Of a stretch of 64,000 nucleotides of DNA, positions 2,713 through 42,003 are shown in pieces (the stretch's first letter is position 1; each line of letters starts with the position of its first letter). Made by a program: the position numbers and the translations under genes. The notes under the pieces were generated by a model. That model was not told the origin of the DNA. It ran no database searches and saw only the letters and a list, made by a program, of their open reading frames with translations. This DNA is from an uncultured Gammaproteobacteria bacterium (GTDB lineage: Bacteria; Patescibacteriota; Microgenomatia; UBA10105; UBA927): the NCBI GenBank assembly GCA_964596355.1, contig CAZQTD010000003.1, positions 20,500 to 84,499 on the forward strand, in the 5' to 3' direction.

Positions 2713-3612
2713 ATGAGCATCCATTCTCAAATCCGCTCGAATGTGACGAAAACGTATGTCATCATGGCGGCGTTCGTCGCATTTGTCGTCCTTGCCGCCT
2801 ATGTCATGGGGCAGTCACTTGGATATGGAAACTCTTGGATGTGGATAGCGGTAGTTTTTGCCGTCATTTCCAGCTTTGCCAGCTACTATTGGGGAGATTC
2901 AATCGTTCTTGCCATGTCAGGCGCGCGGCCGGCGGATAGAAGGCGGGATTTTGATTTGTATACCGTCACCGAAAACTTGTGTATTGCGGCAGGGTTGCCA
3001 AAGCCTCGATTGTATGTCATTGACGACACCGCAATGAACGCGTTTGCCACCGGACGTGATCCGAAGCACGCCGTCGTGTGCGCAACCACTGGACTAATAA
3101 GCCGATTGGAGCGAAGGGAACTGGAGGGGGTCATTGCTCACGAGCTTTCGCACATTAAAAATTTCGATACCAGACTTATGGCTGTTGTGGCGGTGCTTGT
3201 AGGAACAGTGGCATTTCTTGCTGACATGTTCATGCGAAGTTTGTGGTGGGGCGGCGCAAGAAACAGAAGAGATAGGGAAGATAGTTTTGGAGGACTTTTG
3301 GTTGTTGTCGGCGTCGTGCTTGCGATTATTTCTCCTTTGATTGCCACGCTTATTCAATTGGCAATCTCGCGCCGCCGCGAATATCTGGCAGATGCGTCGG
3401 CCGCACATCTTACGCGCTATCCGGAAGGACTTGCGCGCGCGCTTGAGAAACTCGGCCGTGACCGCGAGGTTTTGGAAGCGGCGACCAATGCCACTGCACA
3501 TCTTTATATCACCAACCCATTCAAGGACAAAAGCTTCGGCGCGTGGTTTGCCGGACTGTTCGATACCCACCCGCCGCTTCGAGATCGTATAAAAATCCTC
3601 CGCTCGATGTAA
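2713..3612 (+). CDS. htpX: M48-family zinc metalloprotease, HtpX-like
   Basis: HEXXH motif HELSHIKN, multiple transmembrane segments, and the conserved LemA-HtpX gene pairing. Confidence 0.8.
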   Translation: MSIHSQIRSNVTKTYVIMAAFVAFVVLAAYVMGQSLGYGNSWMWIAVVFAVISSFASYYWGDSIVLAMSGARPADRRRDFDLYTVTENLCIAAGLPKPRLYVIDDTAMNAFATGRDPKHAVVCATTGLISRLERRELEGVIAHELSHIKNFDTRLMAVVAVLVGTVAFLADMFMRSLWWGGARNRRDREDSFGGLLVVVGVVLAIISPLIATLIQLAISRRREYLADASAAHLTRYPEGLARALEKLGRDREVLEAATNATAHLYITNPFKDKSFGAWFAGLFDTHPPLRDRIKILRSM

Positions 3613-3626
3613 TATACTACGATCGT

Positions 3627-4958
3627 ATGACTTCAAGCGTGTGGTTTGCCATCATGGCAGGCAAAGTGGTTTCGTGGGTGAGTAAAACGCTTGGTTTGGG
3701 TGCGGGCGCCACATGGCCGGGAGAGATTGCGATCCGATTGTCGCCAAATATCTTGCATACTCTTGCTGGCCAATTTAGCCGGGGAGTCGTTCTCATCGCC
3801 GGAACCAACGGGAAAACGACGACGGCTCACATGCTTGCGGCGATTGCTAGTCACGAAGGACAGATTGTTGTCCATAACAAAAGCGGCGCCAACCTTCTTA
3901 ACGGCATTGTTTCTGCGTGTATCGAACACATGCGCATCGGCGTGAAGTGTGATTGGGGTATTTTTGAAGTGGATGAAAATTCGCTTCACATTGTGCTTCG
4001 GTATGTACGGCCCAAAGTAATAGTGCTTCTAAACCTTTTCCGTGATCAGCTGGACCGGTATGGAGAAATTGACGTTATTGCGGAAAAGTGGGAACGGGCG
4101 ATAGCGAAGCTGGATAAACAAACTACGCTTATCCTCAACTGCGATGATCCGCTTATTGCGCACTTGGGGAAGCGCGCCGGCATCCATGCATGGTACTTTG
4201 GACTGAATGACAATACGCAAAAGCGTGTCCAAGCAGAACATGCGATGGACTCTGCGTTTTGTATGACGTGCGGGTCGAGATTATCATATAAAACCGTGTA
4301 TTTTTCTCACATTGGCGATTGGTTTTGCGCGAAATGCCACACGCAGCGGCCAAAACCGCATTTGGACACGTTTCCTTCGCCACTGCCCGGACTTTATAAC
4401 CGCTATAATACGCTCGCAGCCGTGCTTGCCGCTTACGCGATGGGCGTCGGGGATAAGGAAGTTCGCGAAGCGCTTTCATTGTTTACTCCTGCCTTTGGGA
4501 GACAGGAAGAGTGTGTCGTGGGGAACAAGAAGGTGAAAATCTTTCTGTCGAAAAACCCCGCCGGATTTAACGCGTCGCTTCGGACAGTATTGGAGGACAA
4601 TCCCAAGGCGTTGCTGTTTGTTCTAAACGACCGCATTCCCGACGGCAGAGATGTAAGCTGGATATGGGATGTGGATATTGAGGAGATCGCGGAATCGCCG
4701 CTGATAATAGTTTCCGGCGATCGGGTGTATGACATGGCCCTGCGCATCAAATATGCCAAGAAGCCTCAACTCGCAAGTTCCAAATTTCAGACACATTCGA
4801 AAGTGCAAGCTCAAAACTTGATGGTTTACGAAGATTTAAAAGGGGCCATACACGCAGGTTTGGATGCATTAGCCAATGGTGAAACGCTGAACGTGCTTGC
4901 GACGTATTCAGCGATGCTGGAGGTGAGGAAAATACTCAAAGGCAGGAAAATAGCATAA
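3627..4958 (+). CDS. murT: Lipid II isoglutaminyl synthase subunit MurT (Mur-ligase-like)
   Basis: Mur ligase P-loop LIAGTNGKTTTAHM. Cys4 ribbon CMTCGSRL...CAKCH. DUF1727-like C-terminus with DGRDVSWIWDVD. Start moved to the ATG at 3627 because the track ORF from 3543 overlaps htpX. Confidence 0.8.
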   Translation: MTSSVWFAIMAGKVVSWVSKTLGLGAGATWPGEIAIRLSPNILHTLAGQFSRGVVLIAGTNGKTTTAHMLAAIASHEGQIVVHNKSGANLLNGIVSACIEHMRIGVKCDWGIFEVDENSLHIVLRYVRPKVIVLLNLFRDQLDRYGEIDVIAEKWERAIAKLDKQTTLILNCDDPLIAHLGKRAGIHAWYFGLNDNTQKRVQAEHAMDSAFCMTCGSRLSYKTVYFSHIGDWFCAKCHTQRPKPHLDTFPSPLPGLYNRYNTLAAVLAAYAMGVGDKEVREALSLFTPAFGRQEECVVGNKKVKIFLSKNPAGFNASLRTVLEDNPKALLFVLNDRIPDGRDVSWIWDVDIEEIAESPLIIVSGDRVYDMALRIKYAKKPQLASSKFQTHSKVQAQNLMVYEDLKGAIHAGLDALANGETLNVLATYSAMLEVRKILKGRKIA

Positions 4959-4988
4959 AGAGTACAGTGCTTTGAGCTGAAAACCGCT

Positions 4989-5741
4989 TTGAGAGATATG
5001 AACTACAGATTGAATATTGCGTGGCTTTACCCCGATCTTATGAGTACTTACGGAGACCGCGGGAACGTGATCGTGCTTAAAAACCGCTGCATTTGGCGCG
5101 GGATTGATGCCGCCATCATCCATGTTACGCTTGAGACGTCTTTAAGACTTCTGCGCGCGTGTGACATTATTTTTATGGGTGGAGCGCAGGACCGGCAGCA
5201 GAAGCTTGCAAGCCATGACTTTTTGGGAAACAAAGCGCCGGTTATTAAAGACATGGTGGAAAGAGGTGTGCCCGCTCTTTTTGTCTGCGCCGCGTACCAG
5301 TTTGTTGGACACTTCTATCGACCATATAAAGGGGCTGTAATTCCGGGAGCTGGCATCTTTGATCTGGCTACCCATCACCCCGGAGATCAGGCAAAGCGCT
5401 TAATAGGCAATGTGGTCGCCGAGCTTATTCACCCCGCTGAACTCAAGGGCAAAACCGTCGTTGGGTTTGAAAATCATGGAGGGAGAACGAAATTAGGTCT
5501 AGCGATGCAACCGCTTGCCCGAGTAATTAAAGGGAATGGCAACAATGGACAGGATGGATTTGAAGGCGCGGTGTACAAAAATTCCATCGGCAGTTACTTC
5601 CACGGCCCTCTTCTTCCTAAAAATCCTCATGTAGCAGATTGGCTGATTGCGAAATCATTAGAAGTTAAATACAAAAAAGCGATACAATTAACGCCGCTTG
5701 ACGATGCGTTGGAATGGAAAGCACATAAATCAGTACTATAG
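4989..5741 (+). CDS. gatD: Lipid II isoglutaminyl synthase glutaminase subunit GatD (CobB/CobQ-type glutamine amidotransferase)
   Basis: N-terminus LNIAWLYPDLMSTYGDRGNVIVLK and catalytic Cys context FVCAAYQF. Sits directly downstream of murT. Confidence 0.75.
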   Translation: MRDMNYRLNIAWLYPDLMSTYGDRGNVIVLKNRCIWRGIDAAIIHVTLETSLRLLRACDIIFMGGAQDRQQKLASHDFLGNKAPVIKDMVERGVPALFVCAAYQFVGHFYRPYKGAVIPGAGIFDLATHHPGDQAKRLIGNVVAELIHPAELKGKTVVGFENHGGRTKLGLAMQPLARVIKGNGNNGQDGFEGAVYKNSIGSYFHGPLLPKNPHVADWLIAKSLEVKYKKAIQLTPLDDALEWKAHKSVL

Positions 5742-5792
5742 GAACCTTTAAAGGTCCGACCCTGCAAGGTGTCTATAGGGTATAATGTGAGT

Positions 5793-6503
5793 ATGGCAGA
5801 TGAGGAAGTTCAAGATCTTCGACAAGAACTATCATTTCTGTATCGCGTCGTCCAGAGCGTACATAGCCTTGAACTTGCGGAGGTTCTTAAGCAAATTGTG
5901 GATGTTGCCTACACGGCAACGAAAGCAGATTCGGTACTTGTTTACATAGTAGATCCCAAAAAACAGCAACTAGTGTTGAGAGCGTCAAAGAATCCCCGCG
6001 AGAACTTGTTTCATAAAATAACCATGAAAATGGGAGAAGGAATTACCGGGTGGGTGGCGCGTGAAAAGAAGGCTGTGGCAATTTCAGCTGGGGCCAATAA
6101 GGATCCACGGTTTAAATTTTTCCGGAGTCTCCCCGAGGACACGTTTGAAGCGTTTTTATCCGTCCCGATTATCAATAAACGCGGCGTCGTGGGGGTCATC
6201 AACGTGCAGCACGAAAAACCGCATACACACACGCGAATGGAAGTTAACTTACTTACCGCAATTGGTAAATTGGTGGGCGGTGCGGTGGAAAACGCACTGC
6301 TCATTGAGGAAACGCTCGCACTGAAGGACGCGCTTATTCTGCGCAAACTTATCGAAAAGGCAAAGGGGATTTTGATGAAGCGTCGGGGGCTTACGGAAGA
6401 ACAAGCGTTTTCGATGCTGCAAAAGCAAAGCATGAATTCCGGCAAGTCAATGAAGGATATCGCTGACGCCGTTATCACCGTAGACGCACTGCAGCTTCGC
6501 TGA
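5793..6503 (+). CDS. GAF-domain sensor fused to a C-terminal ANTAR RNA-binding antiterminator domain
   Basis: The C-terminal LILRKLIEKAKGILMKRRGLTEEQAFSMLQKQSMNSGKSMKDIADAVI matches the ANTAR helix pattern. The N-terminal ~150 aa are GAF-like. A TATAAT hexamer (5781-5786) lies 6 nt before the ATG at 5793, so the mRNA is probably leaderless. The track start at 5769 is a GTG. Confidence 0.8.
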   Translation: MADEEVQDLRQELSFLYRVVQSVHSLELAEVLKQIVDVAYTATKADSVLVYIVDPKKQQLVLRASKNPRENLFHKITMKMGEGITGWVAREKKAVAISAGANKDPRFKFFRSLPEDTFEAFLSVPIINKRGVVGVINVQHEKPHTHTRMEVNLLTAIGKLVGGAVENALLIEETLALKDALILRKLIEKAKGILMKRRGLTEEQAFSMLQKQSMNSGKSMKDIADAVITVDALQLR

Positions 6504-6506
6504 TAC

Positions 6507-6540
6507 TATTCTCATATATTAATATATGAGAATAATTTTG
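6507..6540 (+). terminator. AT-rich 28-bp perfect palindrome TATTCTCATATATT|AATATATGAGAATA followed by ATTTTG; possible intrinsic terminator of the GAF-ANTAR gene or an operator upstream of the glnA promoter
   Basis: Seen directly, 4 nt after the stop at 6503. Confidence 0.4.
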
Positions 6541-6544
6541 GGTA

Positions 6545-6574
6545 TTGACAAGTGACAGCGATGTTTTTTATTGT
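6545..6574 (+). promoter_or_regulatory. Sigma70-like promoter TTGACA-18-TATTGT for the glnA leader
   Basis: Hexamer match and spacing. Predicted transcription start near 6581. Confidence 0.4.
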
Positions 6575-6584
6575 AGTACATAAG

Positions 6585-6651
6585 ATCGCAACGAAGCGAT
6601 TGAATAGAGGGTAGACACTGTCGTCCCGCCTGAAAGGCGGGATTTATCGTT
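6585..6651 (+). promoter_or_regulatory. Candidate ANTAR-regulated antitermination switch in the glnA leader
   Basis: Hairpin P1 ATCGC-AACGAA-GCGAT (6585-6600) and hairpin P2 GAC-ACTGTC-GTC (6614-6625) both have hexaloops with A at position 1 and G at position 4. P2 abuts the intrinsic terminator TCCCGCC-TGAAA-GGCGGGA (6624-6642), which is followed by TTTATCGTT. Confidence 0.5.
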
Positions 6652-6784
6652 ATGAAGCCTGGCTCATCTTTCTTCTTGCATTACGTACTATTTGTAGCGC
6701 GGGTCGAAGAGCGATCATCGGCAGGTCTAAGAAGCGCTAAACTCTCGCAAACGCGTTTGTTAAGCGCTTCTAAGAGAGGATTCT

Positions 6785-8131
6785 ATGGCGAAAGATGACG
6801 TCAAAGAAGTGCTTGCACGTGTAAAAAACGATAACGTCACGTTTGTTGATTTGCAGTTTAATGATTTCCTTGGCAATGTAAAAAGTTCAACGATTCCTGC
6901 CTATAATTTGGAAGACGCCCTGACGCACGGCGTATGGATTGACGGGTCGTCCATAGAAGGATTTGCACGCATTCATGAGTCGGACATGTATCTTATGCCG
7001 GATCCAGCCACTTACTCCCTTCTTCCATGGCGAAACAATATAGAAACAGGTAGGGTAGCGCGGCTTATCTGTGACGTGTATACTCCTAATCACGAACCAT
7101 TTGAGGGCGATCCGCGCGTGATTTTGAAGCGGACGCTTCGTGAGGCAAACGCATTGGGGTACGAGTATTATACCGGCCCAGAATGCGAATTTTTTCTGTT
7201 TCCGAAGGATCACGAAGGAAACATCCGGCGCGAGACCCGCGGCAACGGGTATTACTTCACGCTCATTATGGATGAGTCCTATACAGTCAAGCGCTCTATT
7301 ATGGAAGCGCTGGATGCCATGGGTATTGGTACGGAAACGAGCACGCATGAGGTAGCAGATAATCAGCATGAGATTGATATACGGTATGACCAAGCGCTGA
7401 AAACCGCAGACAACACGGCGACGCTTATCACTGCAGTTAAATTTATCGCTTACAAATACAATTATCATGCGACGTTCATGGCAAAGCCGTTTTTTGGCGT
7501 CAACGGCAGCGGGATGCATACACATCAAAGTCTGTGGAAGGGAGAAAAAAATGCGTTTTACGATTGCAAAGATAAATATGGACTTTCTCGTGTAGCCTAT
7601 CACTTTTTGGCAGGGCAACTTGCCTATGCGCGTGAAATTGCAGGCGTATTTGCGCCGACGGTCAATTCCTACAAACGCGTAACTCCCGGCTATGAAGCGC
7701 CTGCGTATGTCTGCTGGGCGCGGATAAACCGCTCTGCCCTCATACGGGTGCCGAAGGTATCCAAGGGGCTTGAGGATAAAGGAACGAGGCTTGAAATTCG
7801 TTGTCCGGATCCGTCGGGGAGTCCCTATCTGTTGTTTGCAGTGCTTCTCAAAGCAGGACTTGAGGGGATAAAAAAGAATATGAAAGCGCCCGATCCGGTT
7901 GAGGAGAATTTGTTTGAGTTTGATGACGCGAAGTTGTCCACATACTACATTACCAAATTGCCGGGAAGTTTGGGCGACGCTATTGATGAGATGAACAATG
8001 GTAGCGTTGTACGCGAAACGTTTGGTGATTATTCGTTCCATCGATATATCGAAGCCAAAACCGAGGAATGGGACAGCTTCCGACGGTGGGTAACAGATTG
8101 GGAGATTGAGCGGTACCTCACGACCATCTAG
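6785..8131 (+). CDS. glnA: Glutamine synthetase, type I
   Basis: N-terminus and catalytic-region motifs are typical of GSI. Length 448 aa. SD AAGAGAGGA. Confidence 0.9.
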   Translation: MAKDDVKEVLARVKNDNVTFVDLQFNDFLGNVKSSTIPAYNLEDALTHGVWIDGSSIEGFARIHESDMYLMPDPATYSLLPWRNNIETGRVARLICDVYTPNHEPFEGDPRVILKRTLREANALGYEYYTGPECEFFLFPKDHEGNIRRETRGNGYYFTLIMDESYTVKRSIMEALDAMGIGTETSTHEVADNQHEIDIRYDQALKTADNTATLITAVKFIAYKYNYHATFMAKPFFGVNGSGMHTHQSLWKGEKNAFYDCKDKYGLSRVAYHFLAGQLAYAREIAGVFAPTVNSYKRVTPGYEAPAYVCWARINRSALIRVPKVSKGLEDKGTRLEIRCPDPSGSPYLLFAVLLKAGLEGIKKNMKAPDPVEENLFEFDDAKLSTYYITKLPGSLGDAIDEMNNGSVVRETFGDYSFHRYIEAKTEEWDSFRRWVTDWEIERYLTTI

Positions 8132-8176
8132 TTTCCTCGTTTGTTAGCTGCGAGTGTTAGAGTATAATGGGAGCGT

Positions 8177-8482
8177 ATGACACTCTCGTTTACAAGAGGC
8201 GACGTCCGTCGGATCGCCGAACTTGCACACGTTCCTATTACCGCAGAAGAAGAGCAACAGCTAGCAGATGCGTTTACAAAAACGATGACAGTGGTTGATG
8301 AGCTAACAAAACTCGATCTGACAGAAGTTGACGAATACAGTCCGATCGGGCTTGTGAACCAATTTCGGCCGGACGAGGTTGATACGTCCCGCATGTTTAC
8401 CCAGGAGCAAGCGCTTTCAAATGCCAAACGAACCCATGATGGATATTTTGTCGTGGGGCAAGTGATTAATCGGGAACCATGA
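8177..8482 (+). CDS. gatC: Asp-tRNA(Asn)/Glu-tRNA(Gln) amidotransferase subunit C
   Basis: About 100 aa with the typical GatC sequence. ATGA overlap with gatA. Confidence 0.85.
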   Translation: MTLSFTRGDVRRIAELAHVPITAEEEQQLADAFTKTMTVVDELTKLDLTEVDEYSPIGLVNQFRPDEVDTSRMFTQEQALSNAKRTHDGYFVVGQVINREP

Positions 8483-9909
8483 AACACCTTCGTACACTCA
8501 CGCTTGTTAAAGCAGTTACGTTACTTAAGGCGAAAGAAATTTCGCATGAGCAATTGTACGATGACATATTTGAAGCAATAGAGAAAGACAACGCATACTT
8601 GAATATCTATTTGTCGCTTAACAAAACCGCGCGCAAAGATGCAGAATTTCAGCTAGATACACCACTCGCCGGTGTCCCTATAGCGGTGAAGGACAATTTT
8701 CTTACTATTGGATTACCAACAACCGCATCTGCCAAACTCCTTGATGGATTTATGCCGCCATACGAATCCACCGTGACGGATCGGGTGAAAAAAAAAGGAG
8801 GCATTATTCTTGGGAAGACCAACATGGATGCATGGGCGCATGGAAGTAGCACGGAAACGAGCGATTTTGGCCCGACGAAAAATCCCCTAAATCCCTCACA
8901 CGTGCCCGGCGGTTCGTCTGGAGGAAGTGCCGCGGCAGTTGCCTCAAATACATGCATTGCAGCGCTCGGGACGGAAACAGCCGGGTCTATTCGCGTTCCC
9001 GCATGTTGGTGTGGTGTGGTAGGATTAAAGCCAACGTACGGTCGGGTTCCGCGCACCGGAATTGTGGCAATGGGATCTTCGCTTGATAGCCCGGGACCGA
9101 TAACAAAAACTGTAGAAGATGCAGCGCTTCTTTTCACTATTATCGCGGGAAAAGACCCGTATGATGCCACGTCAATCGATAGACCTGTTGGCGATTGTGT
9201 CGCGAATCTCAAAAAGGGAGTAAAAGGGTTTCGTATTGGGATTTGTTACATGGATTATCCAAATCTAAAAAATCGGCAGGTTGCTTCATCGGTTGAGCGC
9301 GCGGGCAAAGTGCTTGAATCGCAGGGAGCGATCGTTGACATGATTCCGCTATCCCAAACATTAAAGCCTCATGCGATATTAACTCCTGATTACGCGATCG
9401 GTGTCTATACGGTTATTCAGCGAAGTGAAGTTTCAAGCAACCTCGCTCGGTATGATGGCGTTCGCTACGGTTTCGATAGGTTGCAGTTTGGCGCAGAAGC
9501 CAAAAGGAGAATCATACTTGGGACATTTACACTTTCTAAAGGCTACGCGGATAAATACTATGTGATGGCTCAAAAGGTCCGTAATCTCTATATACAAAAT
9601 TTTCAGCAGCTGTTTTCTACCTATGACATTCTTCTTTCCACACCTACTCCCGGAGTGGCACTCAAGCTTGGTGAAAGCGAAGGCAATCCGATGTTTGGAG
9701 AGCTTATTGATGTTCTCAACGAGCCCAGTTCGCTTGCAGGGATCACAGCCGTCAGCATCCCGTGTGCATGGGATGATACTACGGGCCTACCGCTTGGTCT
9801 TGCATTAATGGGTAATTACTGGCAAGAAGAAAAGGTGTTGCGAACCGCTTATGTCTGTGAACAGAGCTTCAGGGGAAATCCATGGGTATCCGGCTCCTTG
9901 GGAGCATGA
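8479..9909 (+). CDS. gatA: Asp-tRNA(Asn)/Glu-tRNA(Gln) amidotransferase subunit A (amidase)
   Basis: Amidase signature GGSSGGSAAAVA and its position in the gatCAB order. Confidence 0.9.
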   Translation: MKHLRTLTLVKAVTLLKAKEISHEQLYDDIFEAIEKDNAYLNIYLSLNKTARKDAEFQLDTPLAGVPIAVKDNFLTIGLPTTASAKLLDGFMPPYESTVTDRVKKKGGIILGKTNMDAWAHGSSTETSDFGPTKNPLNPSHVPGGSSGGSAAAVASNTCIAALGTETAGSIRVPACWCGVVGLKPTYGRVPRTGIVAMGSSLDSPGPITKTVEDAALLFTIIAGKDPYDATSIDRPVGDCVANLKKGVKGFRIGICYMDYPNLKNRQVASSVERAGKVLESQGAIVDMIPLSQTLKPHAILTPDYAIGVYTVIQRSEVSSNLARYDGVRYGFDRLQFGAEAKRRIILGTFTLSKGYADKYYVMAQKVRNLYIQNFQQLFSTYDILLSTPTPGVALKLGESEGNPMFGELIDVLNEPSSLAGITAVSIPCAWDDTTGLPLGLALMGNYWQEEKVLRTAYVCEQSFRGNPWVSGSLGA

Positions 9910-9917
9910 GGAATATA

Positions 9918-11255
9918 ATGACGTACGAACCGATCATTGGACTTGAAATACACGTTGAATTGAAAACCAAATCAAAGATGTTTTGCGGGTGCAAAAACGA
10001 TCCCTTTTTTGCACCGAAGCCTAACATCTATACGTGCCCTGTTTGTTTAGGGTTGCCAGGCGGTTTGCCAGTGCCAAACAAAAAAGCTGTCGAGTGGACG
10101 ATTATGTTGGGTTTAGCGCTCGGTTGCACCGTTAATCTTGAATCCAAATTTGATCGGAAGCACTATTTTTACCCAGATCTCCCCAAGGGATATCAAATTT
10201 CGCAACATGATATACCTCTTTGTCGAAACGGAGTCATCCATCTTCCCTCACGTGACGTGCGTATCCATCGTGTACACTTGGAAGAGGATACGGGAAAACT
10301 CCTTCATGCCACTATTGATGGCAAAAGGGCGACGTTGGTTGATTTTAATAGAAGCGGTGTCCCGCTACTTGAAATTGTTACCGAACCGGATATTCGAAGC
10401 GCTGACGAAGCAAAAGAGTTTCTTAAGAAACTCCATCACATCATTCGGTGGTTAGATATCTCTGATGCCGATATGGAAAAGGGCAGTATGAGGTTAGAGC
10501 CGAATATATCAGTGAGAAACGTACCAAGCAAAACGCTATTGCCTCCATATAAAGTTGAAGTAAAGAATATTAATTCCTTTCGGTTTGTGAAGAAGGCCAT
10601 AGATTATGAAGTGAATCGACATATCAGATTGCTTGAAGAAGGACAATTGCCCCTTCAGGAAACTCGCGGGTGGGACGAGAAGAAAGGTATAACGTTTAGT
10701 CAACGGCATAAAGAGCACGCTGATGATTATCGCTACTTCCCAGAGCCGGATATCCCACTGATGCGGTTTACTGAAGCAGAAATATCGAACCTCAAATTTT
10801 ACATTCCAGAACTGCCTGACGCGAAAAAAGCGAGATTTGTACAGGAGTATGGATTATCTGACATTGAAGCTGCCCAAATGACAGAAACAGTTGCTCGTGC
10901 GAACTATTTTGAGTCGGCTGTCCGCGCCGCGGAAAACGGCGAATTCACAAAGATACCTGTAACGCCCAAACTGGTTGCCAATTGGATAATAAACAGGAAG
11001 ATCGAAGAATCCATGGAGCCTGCACAATTGATTGCCGAAATAGCCAAATCGCAAGCGGTGGAAGAAGTATCCGATGATGTTGTCCAGACAGCAATAGGTA
11101 CTGTTTTTGCCGCCAATCCAAAGGCCGTTGCTGACTTCAGGGCCGGCAAAGAAAAAGTTAAAATGTTTCTCTTTGGCAATGTTCTGCGGGAACTTAAAGG
11201 GAAAGGGAATAAAAGGAGAATAATGGGGTTGCTTGAGCAGAGGCTTGCTTCTTAG
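9918..11255 (+). CDS. gatB: Asp-tRNA(Asn)/Glu-tRNA(Gln) amidotransferase subunit B
   Basis: N-terminus YEPIIGLEIHVEL. Start set to the ATG at 9918 after the SD. Confidence 0.9.
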   Translation: MTYEPIIGLEIHVELKTKSKMFCGCKNDPFFAPKPNIYTCPVCLGLPGGLPVPNKKAVEWTIMLGLALGCTVNLESKFDRKHYFYPDLPKGYQISQHDIPLCRNGVIHLPSRDVRIHRVHLEEDTGKLLHATIDGKRATLVDFNRSGVPLLEIVTEPDIRSADEAKEFLKKLHHIIRWLDISDADMEKGSMRLEPNISVRNVPSKTLLPPYKVEVKNINSFRFVKKAIDYEVNRHIRLLEEGQLPLQETRGWDEKKGITFSQRHKEHADDYRYFPEPDIPLMRFTEAEISNLKFYIPELPDAKKARFVQEYGLSDIEAAQMTETVARANYFESAVRAAENGEFTKIPVTPKLVANWIINRKIEESMEPAQLIAEIAKSQAVEEVSDDVVQTAIGTVFAANPKAVADFRAGKEKVKMFLFGNVLRELKGKGNKRRIMGLLEQRLAS

Positions 11256-41187: not shown

Positions 41188-42003
41188 TCATTGTATGCAA
41201 AAAAAGCTTCCCACGCTAGTGAGCTCTGAAAGTTTGGTTGTTGGGCCGTAAAACGCCGACGCGCTGCCGCCGTCTAAATTCAGCGCATGGAGAACGTTGA
41301 TGTTCGCTTGCGCGGAAAGTTGTGTGATAAGAGACGGAAGCTCGGCAAGAAACGGGCCGTCAAACACAGCGTCTTTGATAAACAAGACGATGAAGTATGC
41401 ATTTCCCGCGTCATCTATTGCCGCAACAACGCGCCGAGCCCGTTCATCGTTTGCAATTGCGAGCGACTGTTTGTCGCCATCGAAAATCAAAAGCGGGCCG
41501 GTTTGGAGAGCAAAAACAGCGGGAACTGTCGGTGGTTCGCGGGAAATTGTCACGCGCTTGTTATATAGCCAGAGGAATCCGTTGATCAAACGATTGTTAA
41601 CCGCTTCACGAATCGTTTGACCGTTTGCTTCCCACAGTCCCAACGGTCTTCCTTCTGTATCATAAAATCCGCCGCTTGCCGCTTGAGTGCAGGCGTACTG
41701 TTGCATAAACGATCGGCTGTCAAGTTTTTCCTCAAAGTTGGGGATAAGAACGATGCCGTCTGGGTCATTGACCGTGATCACGTCGTATGCGTACGTTTCG
41801 TTATTAAGGTGTATAGTTTGGATCGGCGACTGAATCAACGGTGGCGACTGCGTAATCTCTGGAGGGCGCGCTATCATATCCGGCTTTCTCATATACCGAT
41901 ATATGAGAATACCGGCGATGGTTGCAAGAACACAAAAAAACATGATGGACGGCAACACGTTTTTCATGATTAAGCGCCGCCTTTTCGCCATTTGGGCGAA
42001 CAA
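41188..42003 (-). CDS. Phosphodiester glycosidase family protein (DUF2233-like), N-terminal membrane anchor
   Basis: Sequence pattern of the NAGPA-like phosphodiester glycosidase family (…LNLDGGSASAFYGP…). Confidence 0.5.
   Translation of the reverse strand: MFAQMAKRRRLIMKNVLPSIMFFCVLATIAGILIYRYMRKPDMIARPPEITQSPPLIQSPIQTIHLNNETYAYDVITVNDPDGIVLIPNFEEKLDSRSFMQQYACTQAASGGFYDTEGRPLGLWEANGQTIREAVNNRLINGFLWLYNKRVTISREPPTVPAVFALQTGPLLIFDGDKQSLAIANDERARRVVAAIDDAGNAYFIVLFIKDAVFDGPFLAELPSLITQLSAQANINVLHALNLDGGSASAFYGPTTKLSELTSVGSFFCIQ

Follow-up and report, generated by a model that had tools for sequence, protein, structure and literature searches.

A GAF-ANTAR regulator and a two-hairpin glnA leader as a probable antitermination switch in an uncultured Patescibacteria bacterium

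We analyzed a 64,000-nt stretch of DNA, hereafter the window, from an uncultured bacterium assigned to the Patescibacteriota (assembly GCA_964596355.1, contig CAZQTD010000003.1, positions 20,500 to 84,499). The window contains a gene for a protein with a GAF sensor domain and an ANTAR RNA-binding domain (hereafter the regulator), directly upstream of glnA, which encodes glutamine synthetase. The 281-nt intergenic region between these genes carries a promoter, two small hairpins, named P1 and P2, and an intrinsic terminator (Table 1). The genes htpX, murT and gatD lie 5' of the regulator gene, and gatC, gatA and gatB lie 3' of glnA. An original prediction, made from the letters of the DNA, had identified the two central genes and proposed that the regulator controls glnA by antitermination. 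Both gene assignments were confirmed, as the GAF and ANTAR domains scored above their Pfam cut-offs and GlnA scored 473.6 bits against the NCBIfam model TIGR00653, above its equivalog cut-off of 429.15.

In the regulator, Pfam matched GAF to residues 28-164 (61 bits) and ANTAR (PF03861) to residues 177-228 (74.2 bits with a cut-off of 27.3; profile positions 3-54 of 54). GAF precedes ANTAR, and there was no Pfam match to Response_reg in the protein. The regulator has a one-component architecture, in which a sensor is fused to ANTAR without a receiver domain. An AlphaFold2 (AF2) model, with a predicted local distance difference test (pLDDT) score of 82 and values of 90-96 over the helices 148-198, 202-216 and 220-232, placed a GAF fold at residues ~1-147, followed by a 50-residue coiled-coil helix (148-198) and two further helices; the three-helix ANTAR part spans residues 177-232. 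The long coiled coil and the three-helix bundle of this model match the ANTAR arrangement that supports dimerization. The ANTAR part aligned to NasR, EutV and Rv1626 in phmmer searches, with NasR as the best match (4akk, E 4e-11), and Met214 and Asn215 match Met172 and Asn173 of EutV.

The GAF part was nearest to the N-terminal GAF domain of PtsP (also known as EI-Ntr) by phmmer (3ci6, E 6e-17) and in predicted fold, where the top Foldseek match was again 3ci6 (template modelling score, TM, 0.82-0.86). The best partial NCBIfam match was PRK11061 (PtsP), covering positions 7-157 of 748 (E 2e-21, 75.9 bits), and the second-best NCBIfam GAF match was that of NifA (E 1e-11). The regulator is not itself a full PtsP, as its 75.9 bits compare with an equivalog cut-off of 583; only the sensor domain is shared. 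A total of 6814 homologues of the regulator were found in the database, and the closest named ones (64-73% identity) belong to Candidatus Gottesmanbacteria, other Patescibacteria and a metagenome-assembled genome (MAG) of Anaerolineales.

The promoter, P1, linker, P2 and terminator listed in the original prediction could all be read in the sequence. The core of P1 (ATCGC-AACGAA-GCGAT, 6585-6600) is widened by an extra G.U pair. Both loops are hexaloops with A at position 1 and G at position 4 (A6590 and G6593 in P1; A6617 and G6620 in P2), the signature that had been pointed out earlier and that is retained in relatives (see below). The terminator stem has 9 pairs, of which 6 are G-C, with UUUAUCGUU directly 3' of it. 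Its 5' arm starts at G6623, which is the first nucleotide of the P2 3' arm, and the overlap between P2 and the terminator is 3 nt, that is, all of the P2 3' arm, when the bottom G.U and U-A pairs are counted. The caveat attached to the original prediction was therefore right on the short P2 stem, which has 3 bp, and needed correction on the overlap, which had been given as 2 nt. The minimum free energy (MFE) structure of the protein-free leader contained P1 and the terminator and lacked P2, as the ANTAR model expects for the protein-free state. Formation of P2 would need bound protein.

Table 1. Positions of the genes and leader elements around the regulator-glnA intergenic region of the window.
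Feature	Position	Strand	Basis or remark
Regulator gene (GAF + ANTAR, 236 aa)	5793-6503	+	Pfam, NCBIfam, AF2, Foldseek
A/U-rich palindrome, 12-bp stem	6507-6534		Between regulator stop and glnA -35; -13.2 kcal/mol, z -3.3
Sigma70-type promoter TTGACA-18-TATTGT	6545-6574	+	Sequence
P1, GAUCGC-AACGAA-GCGAUU, 6 bp	6584-6601	+	-6.2 kcal/mol, forms in MFE structure
P1-P2 linker, 12-13 nt	6602-6613	+	Sequence
P2, GAC-ACUGUC-GUC, 3 bp, putative antiterminator element	6614-6625	+	-1.7 kcal/mol in isolation
Terminator GUCCCGCCU-GAA-AGGCGGGAU (6623-6643) with U-tract UUAUCGUUA	6623-6652	+	-15.2 kcal/mol, z -4.6
Lineage-specific 3' leader with Shine-Dalgarno (SD) sequence GAGAGG (6774-6779)	6653-6784	+	Hairpin 6726-6775
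glnA, type I glutamine synthetase, putative regulated gene	6785-8131	+	Pfam Gln-synt_N and Gln-synt_C; TIGR00653
gatC-gatA-gatB	8177-11255	+	Open reading frames; gene calls and Pfam families in L161

We assessed how often such an arrangement arises by chance in the window. Pairs of hexaloop hairpins with A at position 1 and G at position 4, at most 25 nt apart, occurred 11 times on both strands, compared with 14.6 +/- 3.8 in shuffled sequences. Thus, the bare dual-hexaloop descriptor was not above chance, and we did not use it as evidence. When a terminator starting in the 3' arm of P2 was added to the descriptor, a single instance was found in the window with 0.03 expected. Further, a covariance model built from 43 leaders outside the window alone (model R2) matched positions 6583-6630 in the 64 kb (24.1 bits, E 9e-4), and the next match had an E-value of 0.43. 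When models R1 and R2 were run across the window with filters off, no target other than 6583-6630 was found.

The comparison set consisted of 160 loci (numbered with the prefix L) taken from species-representative genomes and metagenomes. In about 30 of them, the gene directly 3' of the regulator gene, in the same orientation, is glnA. With a simple descriptor, the P1-linker-P2-terminator arrangement was detected in 26 non-redundant intergenic regions, and most of the remaining intergenic regions contained variants of it, recognized by eye or by model search. In the shared arrangement, P1 has a variable stem and the loop AANGRN, 1-23 nt separate it from a conserved P2 of the form (A)GAC-NNNGNN-GUC(U), and the terminator, whose 5' arm begins in the P2 3' arm, is followed by a U-run. 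A search with a covariance model of P1-linker-P2 over the ~840 kb of the 160 loci returned 46 matches at E<0.1, all of them on the strand of the regulator gene.

The 43 leaders behind model R2 came from related loci in Patescibacteria-like MAGs and others. In these non-window instances, 96.6% of cells were paired, compared with 33-55% when the partners were slid, and P1 showed compensatory changes at 4 of its 5 pairs with a covariation score that none of 500 shuffles reached; these pair counts were taken from an alignment fitted to the covariance model. The GAC/GUC core of P2 was invariant in the 43 relatives. Because of this invariance, the pairing of P2 is without support from covariation, and it is not contradicted either. 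A fourth pair of P2 (A-U) was present in 26 of the 43 and missing in the window and 11 others, including L081. Both loops were hexaloops in 42 of the 43 relatives. The P1 loop had A at position 1 in 40 of 42 and G at position 4 in all 42 (consensus AANGRN), and the corresponding counts for the P2 loop were 36 and 42 of 42. The closing pair was C-G in 40 (P1) and 43 (P2) of the 43, and the linker measured 1-30 nt with a median of ~7. A covariance comparison of orthologous leaders had been suggested with the original prediction, and its outcome was as anticipated there: P1 and P2 are kept, P1 with compensatory changes, and the A1/G4 signature is retained.

The surrounding elements were also shared. 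Of 44 instances, 36 had a sigma70-type promoter, in most cases with a perfect TTGACA, that ended 3-18 nt 5' of P1, mostly at 5-13 nt. Transcription of the leader therefore probably starts just upstream of P1, in the window a few nucleotides before it. A terminator starting in the 3' arm of P2 was detected automatically in at least 27 of the 44 instances, and several further ones were recognized by eye. The closest leader, that of L081, whose regulator is 67% identical to that of the window, shares the 3-bp P2, and its terminator reads CCCGCC...GGCGGG. Homologues from Acidobacteriota, Nitrospirota and Planctomycetota lacked glnA within 3 kb and gave hardly any match to the motif; many of these proteins match the GAF part only and are therefore uninformative on the switch. 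No ANTAR-type family of Rfam matched the loci with the strongest instances, and a search of window positions 5000-9000 against Rfam 15 gave nothing relevant at E<=10; the sole hit on the leader, CRISPR-DR63 on the palindrome, was rejected as spurious.

Two features of the relatives' leaders are recorded here as separate observations. The -10 element, placed ~8-12 nt 5' of P1, repeatedly read TAGGAT (or TAAGAT) and not TATAAT, together with a perfect TTGACA (L003, L081, L083-L085, L136, L002, L011 and L024), and where the intergenic region is short, the -35 element falls within the regulator open reading frame (ORF), at its 3' end. Three consecutive hexaloop hairpins were present in L127 (5476-5543), L135 (about 974-1040) and L071 (about 3650-3725), for example as TCTTC-AACGAC-GAAGA, AAGAC-AAAGAA-GTCTT and AAGAC-AAAGGC-GTCTT, which suggests tandem or alternative binding sites.

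The motif went with nitrogen genes rather than with the regulator gene. In L011 and L100, other DNA lies between the regulator gene and glnA, and the motif is directly before glnA; in L019, glnA is upstream of the regulator gene, and the motif still precedes glnA. Further, the motif was found before ammonium-transporter genes (amtB) in L034, L052 (3684-3730) and L101 (2734-2778) and before a carbon-nitrogen hydrolase gene in L133 (3604-3657). L034 has two copies (4286-4324 and 4920-4962), one of which precedes a sigma/LuxR-like gene. Together, glnA, amtB and the carbon-nitrogen hydrolase gene are what one would expect a nitrogen-assimilation regulon to contain, and they agree with predictions for ANTAR targets in other phyla (PMC3369931, PMC3369936). 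The motif also occurs before small unannotated ORFs just 5' of the regulator gene (L007, 2638-2679; L096, 1900-1942), and with the motif in this position, autoregulation is possible.

We interpret the locus as a one-component ANTAR antitermination switch for glutamine synthetase, to which we assign a probability of roughly 0.8. The conserved leaders and the window-free model support this reading, which was also that of the original prediction. In the proposed mechanism, transcription would begin at the sigma70-type promoter, a few nucleotides before P1. By default, the terminator and its U-tract would fold, and transcription would stop about 70 nt into the leader. A regulator competent to bind RNA, presumably a dimer formed through the coiled-coil helix, would bind P1 and then the otherwise unstable P2. 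P2 would then hold G6623-C6625, the three bottom pairs of the terminator beside the U-tract would be lost, and RNA polymerase would read through into glnA and possibly gatCAB. Intrinsic termination requires that the bottom of the terminator stem is formed close to the U-tract, and an overlap of 3 nt can suffice for this reason. The order of binding to P1 and P2 and the exclusivity of P2 and terminator are modelled on EutV, NasR and AmiR, for which dual hexaloops with A1/G4 are likewise established (PMC3369931, PMC8934654). Binding to the leader, read-through and the signal are steps that we infer.

The GAF domain of NifA binds 2-oxoglutarate. In EI-Ntr, the GAF domain binds glutamine and thereby controls the output domain (PMC4848567). 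As the PtsP GAF is the closest match to that of the regulator, our best guess is a ligand that reports nitrogen status, and glutamine and/or 2-oxoglutarate may be the signal read by this PtsP/EI-Ntr-like domain, a proposal to which we give nearly, if not quite, an even chance. Glutamine would then switch RNA binding off, and glnA would be on at low glutamine; this direction of control is suggested by physiology and by the precedent of EI-Ntr. Taken as a whole, the switch is the best explanation of the locus and a likely one, with its signal less certain. A wider proposal is tentative, namely that the family of PtsP-type GAF-ANTAR proteins senses glutamine and/or 2-oxoglutarate directly and runs a nitrogen regulon by antitermination. 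If it is true, a single protein would serve glnA, amtB, a gene for a carbon-nitrogen-hydrolase-type amidotransferase and possibly gatCAB in Patescibacteria, or candidate phyla radiation (CPR), and in several uncultured lineages. It would then be the first GAF-ANTAR protein whose ligand is defined and would stand, in minimal form, in the place of the PII-, NtrBC- or GlnR-type circuits of model bacteria.

The identity between the GAF domains of the regulator and PtsP is ~26%, which counts against the proposed ligand. The same RNA switch could be governed by a GAF domain that responds to a cyclic nucleotide, to some other metabolite or to a partner protein, with an indirect link to nitrogen. This alternative is a serious one, at appreciably less than even odds: GAF domains bind many ligands, and the structural neighbours of the regulator include GAF domains that bind cyclic AMP or cyclic GMP (5w10, PDE5/PDE2), whereas the best matches in sequence, profile and fold are the GAF domains of PtsP/EI-Ntr and then NifA, both of which are nitrogen-status sensors (PMC4848567), and the target genes include glnA and amtB.

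Several other points weigh against an antitermination switch in the window or limit its support. The window copy scores 24 bits, compared with 30-44 for most relatives, and is among the weakest instances. Its U-tract is interrupted, reading UUUAUCGUU where relatives have U6-9; P2 and the terminator overlap by 3 nt only; and the P2 loop (ACUGUC) is unusual at positions 2 and 5. In the protein, Gly217 occupies the position of an RNA-stem contact of EutV, Arg175 (PMC8934654), where 113 of 121 relatives have Arg; further, residue 182 is Ile, compared with Glu in 23 of 25 relatives. Gly217 marks the window protein as atypical. For the family as a whole, the conservation of P2 could equally reflect sequence-specific recognition, and the linker range of 1-30 nt is wider than EutV tolerates, which hints at a different binding geometry. 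GAF-ANTAR proteins were still uncharacterized in PMC3369931 and PMC7496416.

The features particular to the window, with an extra 130 nt of non-conserved 3' leader, are those expected if the family switch is real and the window copy is decaying or rewired, so that its leader would be largely constitutive through a terminator that is leaky or cannot be overridden. The substitutions concerned, R217G and E182I, are at near-invariant positions. Against this, the 3-bp P2 is common to 11 of the 43 other leaders, including L081 and the whole Buchananbacteria-like group, and the regulator of L095 also has Gly at position 217 together with a canonical target; the change from Arg to Gly has therefore been tolerated at least once. 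The A1/G4 signature, the C-G closing pairs, the position of the promoter and the strong terminator stem are intact in the window, and the regulator ORF is full length. We consider decay of the window copy unlikely.

Control might instead be translational, with the ANTAR protein or the hairpin 6726-6775 modulating access of the ribosome. The original prediction had noted a hairpin abutting the SD sequence of glnA and had suggested an added translational layer. The hairpin exists (9 bp at 6730-6771, with outer pairs at 6726-6775) and ends at the edge of the SD sequence, and ANTAR targets overlapping ribosome binding sites are found in actinobacteria, including mycobacteria (PMC8164766; PMC8934654). 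The layer itself was not supported: the fold of the 3' leader was not better than that of shuffled sequences (z -1.8), the SD sequence was unpaired in the MFE structure, and positions 6652-6784 showed no similarity to the leaders of relatives and no repeat elsewhere in the window. Further, the hexaloop motif lies ~155 nt 5' of the start codon and overlaps the terminator, not the SD sequence, and we regard translational control as very improbable. That the hairpins are chance structures, 6623-6643 is an ordinary terminator or attenuator and the ANTAR protein acts elsewhere is the least probable account of all, one that would fit the chance frequency of the bare hexaloop pairs and a 3-bp P2 absent from the MFE structure and that already appears contradicted by the comparative data, in which a model built without the window finds 6583-6630 alone and the architecture and P1 covariation are kept in 43 leaders on the regulator's strand upstream of nitrogen genes.

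The palindrome between the regulator stop codon and the glnA -35 element had been suggested to be the terminator of the regulator gene. This is reasonable and probably correct. A plain terminator role, however, leaves unexplained a second copy at 41886-41909 with the same 10-nt arms as 6509-6532 (TTCTCATATA-N4-TATATGAGAA), for which the chance expectation was 0 even with 3 mismatches allowed. The second copy lies inside a minus-strand gene for a NAGPA-domain protein without a link to nitrogen and encodes ..GILIYRYMRK.. after a membrane anchor. The palindrome at 6507-6534 is possibly also a protein-binding site, and the duplicated sequence may serve as an operator or as a site of recombination. 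Relatives have unrelated hairpins in its place. An ORF at 6652-6798 (MKPGSSFFLHYV..., 48 aa), which begins directly after the terminator and stops 14 nt inside glnA, was rejected as a gene candidate; it is in another frame than glnA, is without an SD sequence and is not conserved, and is probably not a gene.

No terminator-like site was found 3' of glnA, and gatCAB may therefore share the glnA transcript. A promoter-like site lies between glnA and gatC at 8141-8168, and gatA comes after glnA in several relatives. Co-transcription of gatCAB with glnA is possible. The order murT-gatD-GAF/ANTAR-glnA-gatCAB (window 3543-11255) is kept in a Gottesmanbacteria-like group and was found in L002, L005, L084-L086, L089-L091, L095 and L136. 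In this order, glnA and the regulator gene are bracketed by glutamine-dependent amidotransferases, MurT/GatD for lipid II amidation and GatCAB for tRNA amidation. In its longest form, the murT ORF begins at a GTG (3543) and shares 70 nt with the end of htpX, whose stop is at 3612; the true murT start is probably further downstream. A perfect TATAAT (5781-5786) with a poor -35 element lies 6 nt before the regulator ATG (5793), without an intervening SD sequence; the regulator mRNA may be leaderless or may be co-transcribed with gatD (stop at 5741).

Since 2012, ANTAR antitermination has been known together with its dual-hexaloop target and its association with nitrogen genes, among them that for glutamine synthetase (PMC3369931, PMC3369936). 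The only characterized one-component ANTAR regulators named in the 2020 NasR paper are NasR and PAL (PMC7496416), and both that paper and a 2025 review (PMC12591593) give GAF-ANTAR solely as an architecture. We found no paper in the literature searched linking GAF-ANTAR with glnA or with Patescibacteria. Gene regulation in Patescibacteria is almost unexplored because the organisms are uncultured. The sequence of this locus reveals a complete candidate circuit (sensor, RNA target, terminator, promoter, regulated genes) that is kept across many lineages. It offers a testable hypothesis on how reduced genomes adjust both the synthesis of glutamine and the uptake of ammonium to nitrogen status. 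Further, a 236-aa protein and an RNA of ~50 nt would make a tractable representative of GAF-ANTAR, an architecture that is common in databases and without a characterized member.

Among known systems, the eutP leader and its regulator EutV of Enterococcus faecalis resemble the present case in the coiled coil before ANTAR, the two A1/G4 hexaloop mini-hairpins, the exclusivity of P2 and the intrinsic terminator, and the conserved closing base pairs (PMC3369931; PMC8934654). In contrast to the fused GAF domain here, EutV is a phosphorylated two-component response regulator, and it targets eut genes, not glnA, with a narrower tolerance for linker length. The P2 of the eut leader is embedded in its terminator, whereas 3-4 nt of the P2 3' arm overlap the stem base here. 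NasR, which acts on the nasF leader of Klebsiella oxytoca, is likewise a one-component regulator with a sensor fused to ANTAR, and its target is a nitrogen-assimilation operon with an A1/G4 hexaloop and a terminator. Its sensor, however, is a NIT domain that responds to nitrate and nitrite, and it controls nitrate assimilation, not glutamine synthetase.

Closest in physiology are NitR of Clostridium saccharobutylicum ('C. acetobutylicum P262'), an ANTAR-family antiterminator that induces glutamine synthetase and glutamate synthase (GS/GOGAT) genes on nitrogen limitation, and GnfR of Geobacter sulfurreducens, an ANTAR-family antiterminator acting on the nif, glnK and amtB leaders (PMC6316151; PMC4676874; PMC2995071). 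In physiological logic and in the kinds of gene targeted (glnA, amtB), both agree with the present case, but they have receiver-type N-termini without GAF, need partner proteins or kinases, and belong to other phyla. By covariance search, Ramesh et al. (2012) predicted dual hairpins with a terminator 5' of genes for glutamine synthase, ammonium transporters and PII (PMC3369931; PMC3369936), in Actinobacteria, Bacteroidetes, Firmicutes and Proteobacteria and without a tie to GAF-ANTAR proteins. On the sensor side, the GAF domain of PtsP/EI-Ntr, which binds glutamine (PMC4848567), is the closest by sequence, profile and predicted fold, at the low identity given above; its output is a phosphoenolpyruvate-dependent phosphotransferase, whereas here it is the RNA-binding ANTAR domain. 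As dozens of related uncultured bacteria have this layout, the switch appears real but conventional. The proposed mechanism is ordinary, canonical ANTAR antitermination; the pairing of sensor and output and the lineage are new, and the value of the locus lies in this pairing and in a covariance model that can be used to map the regulon.

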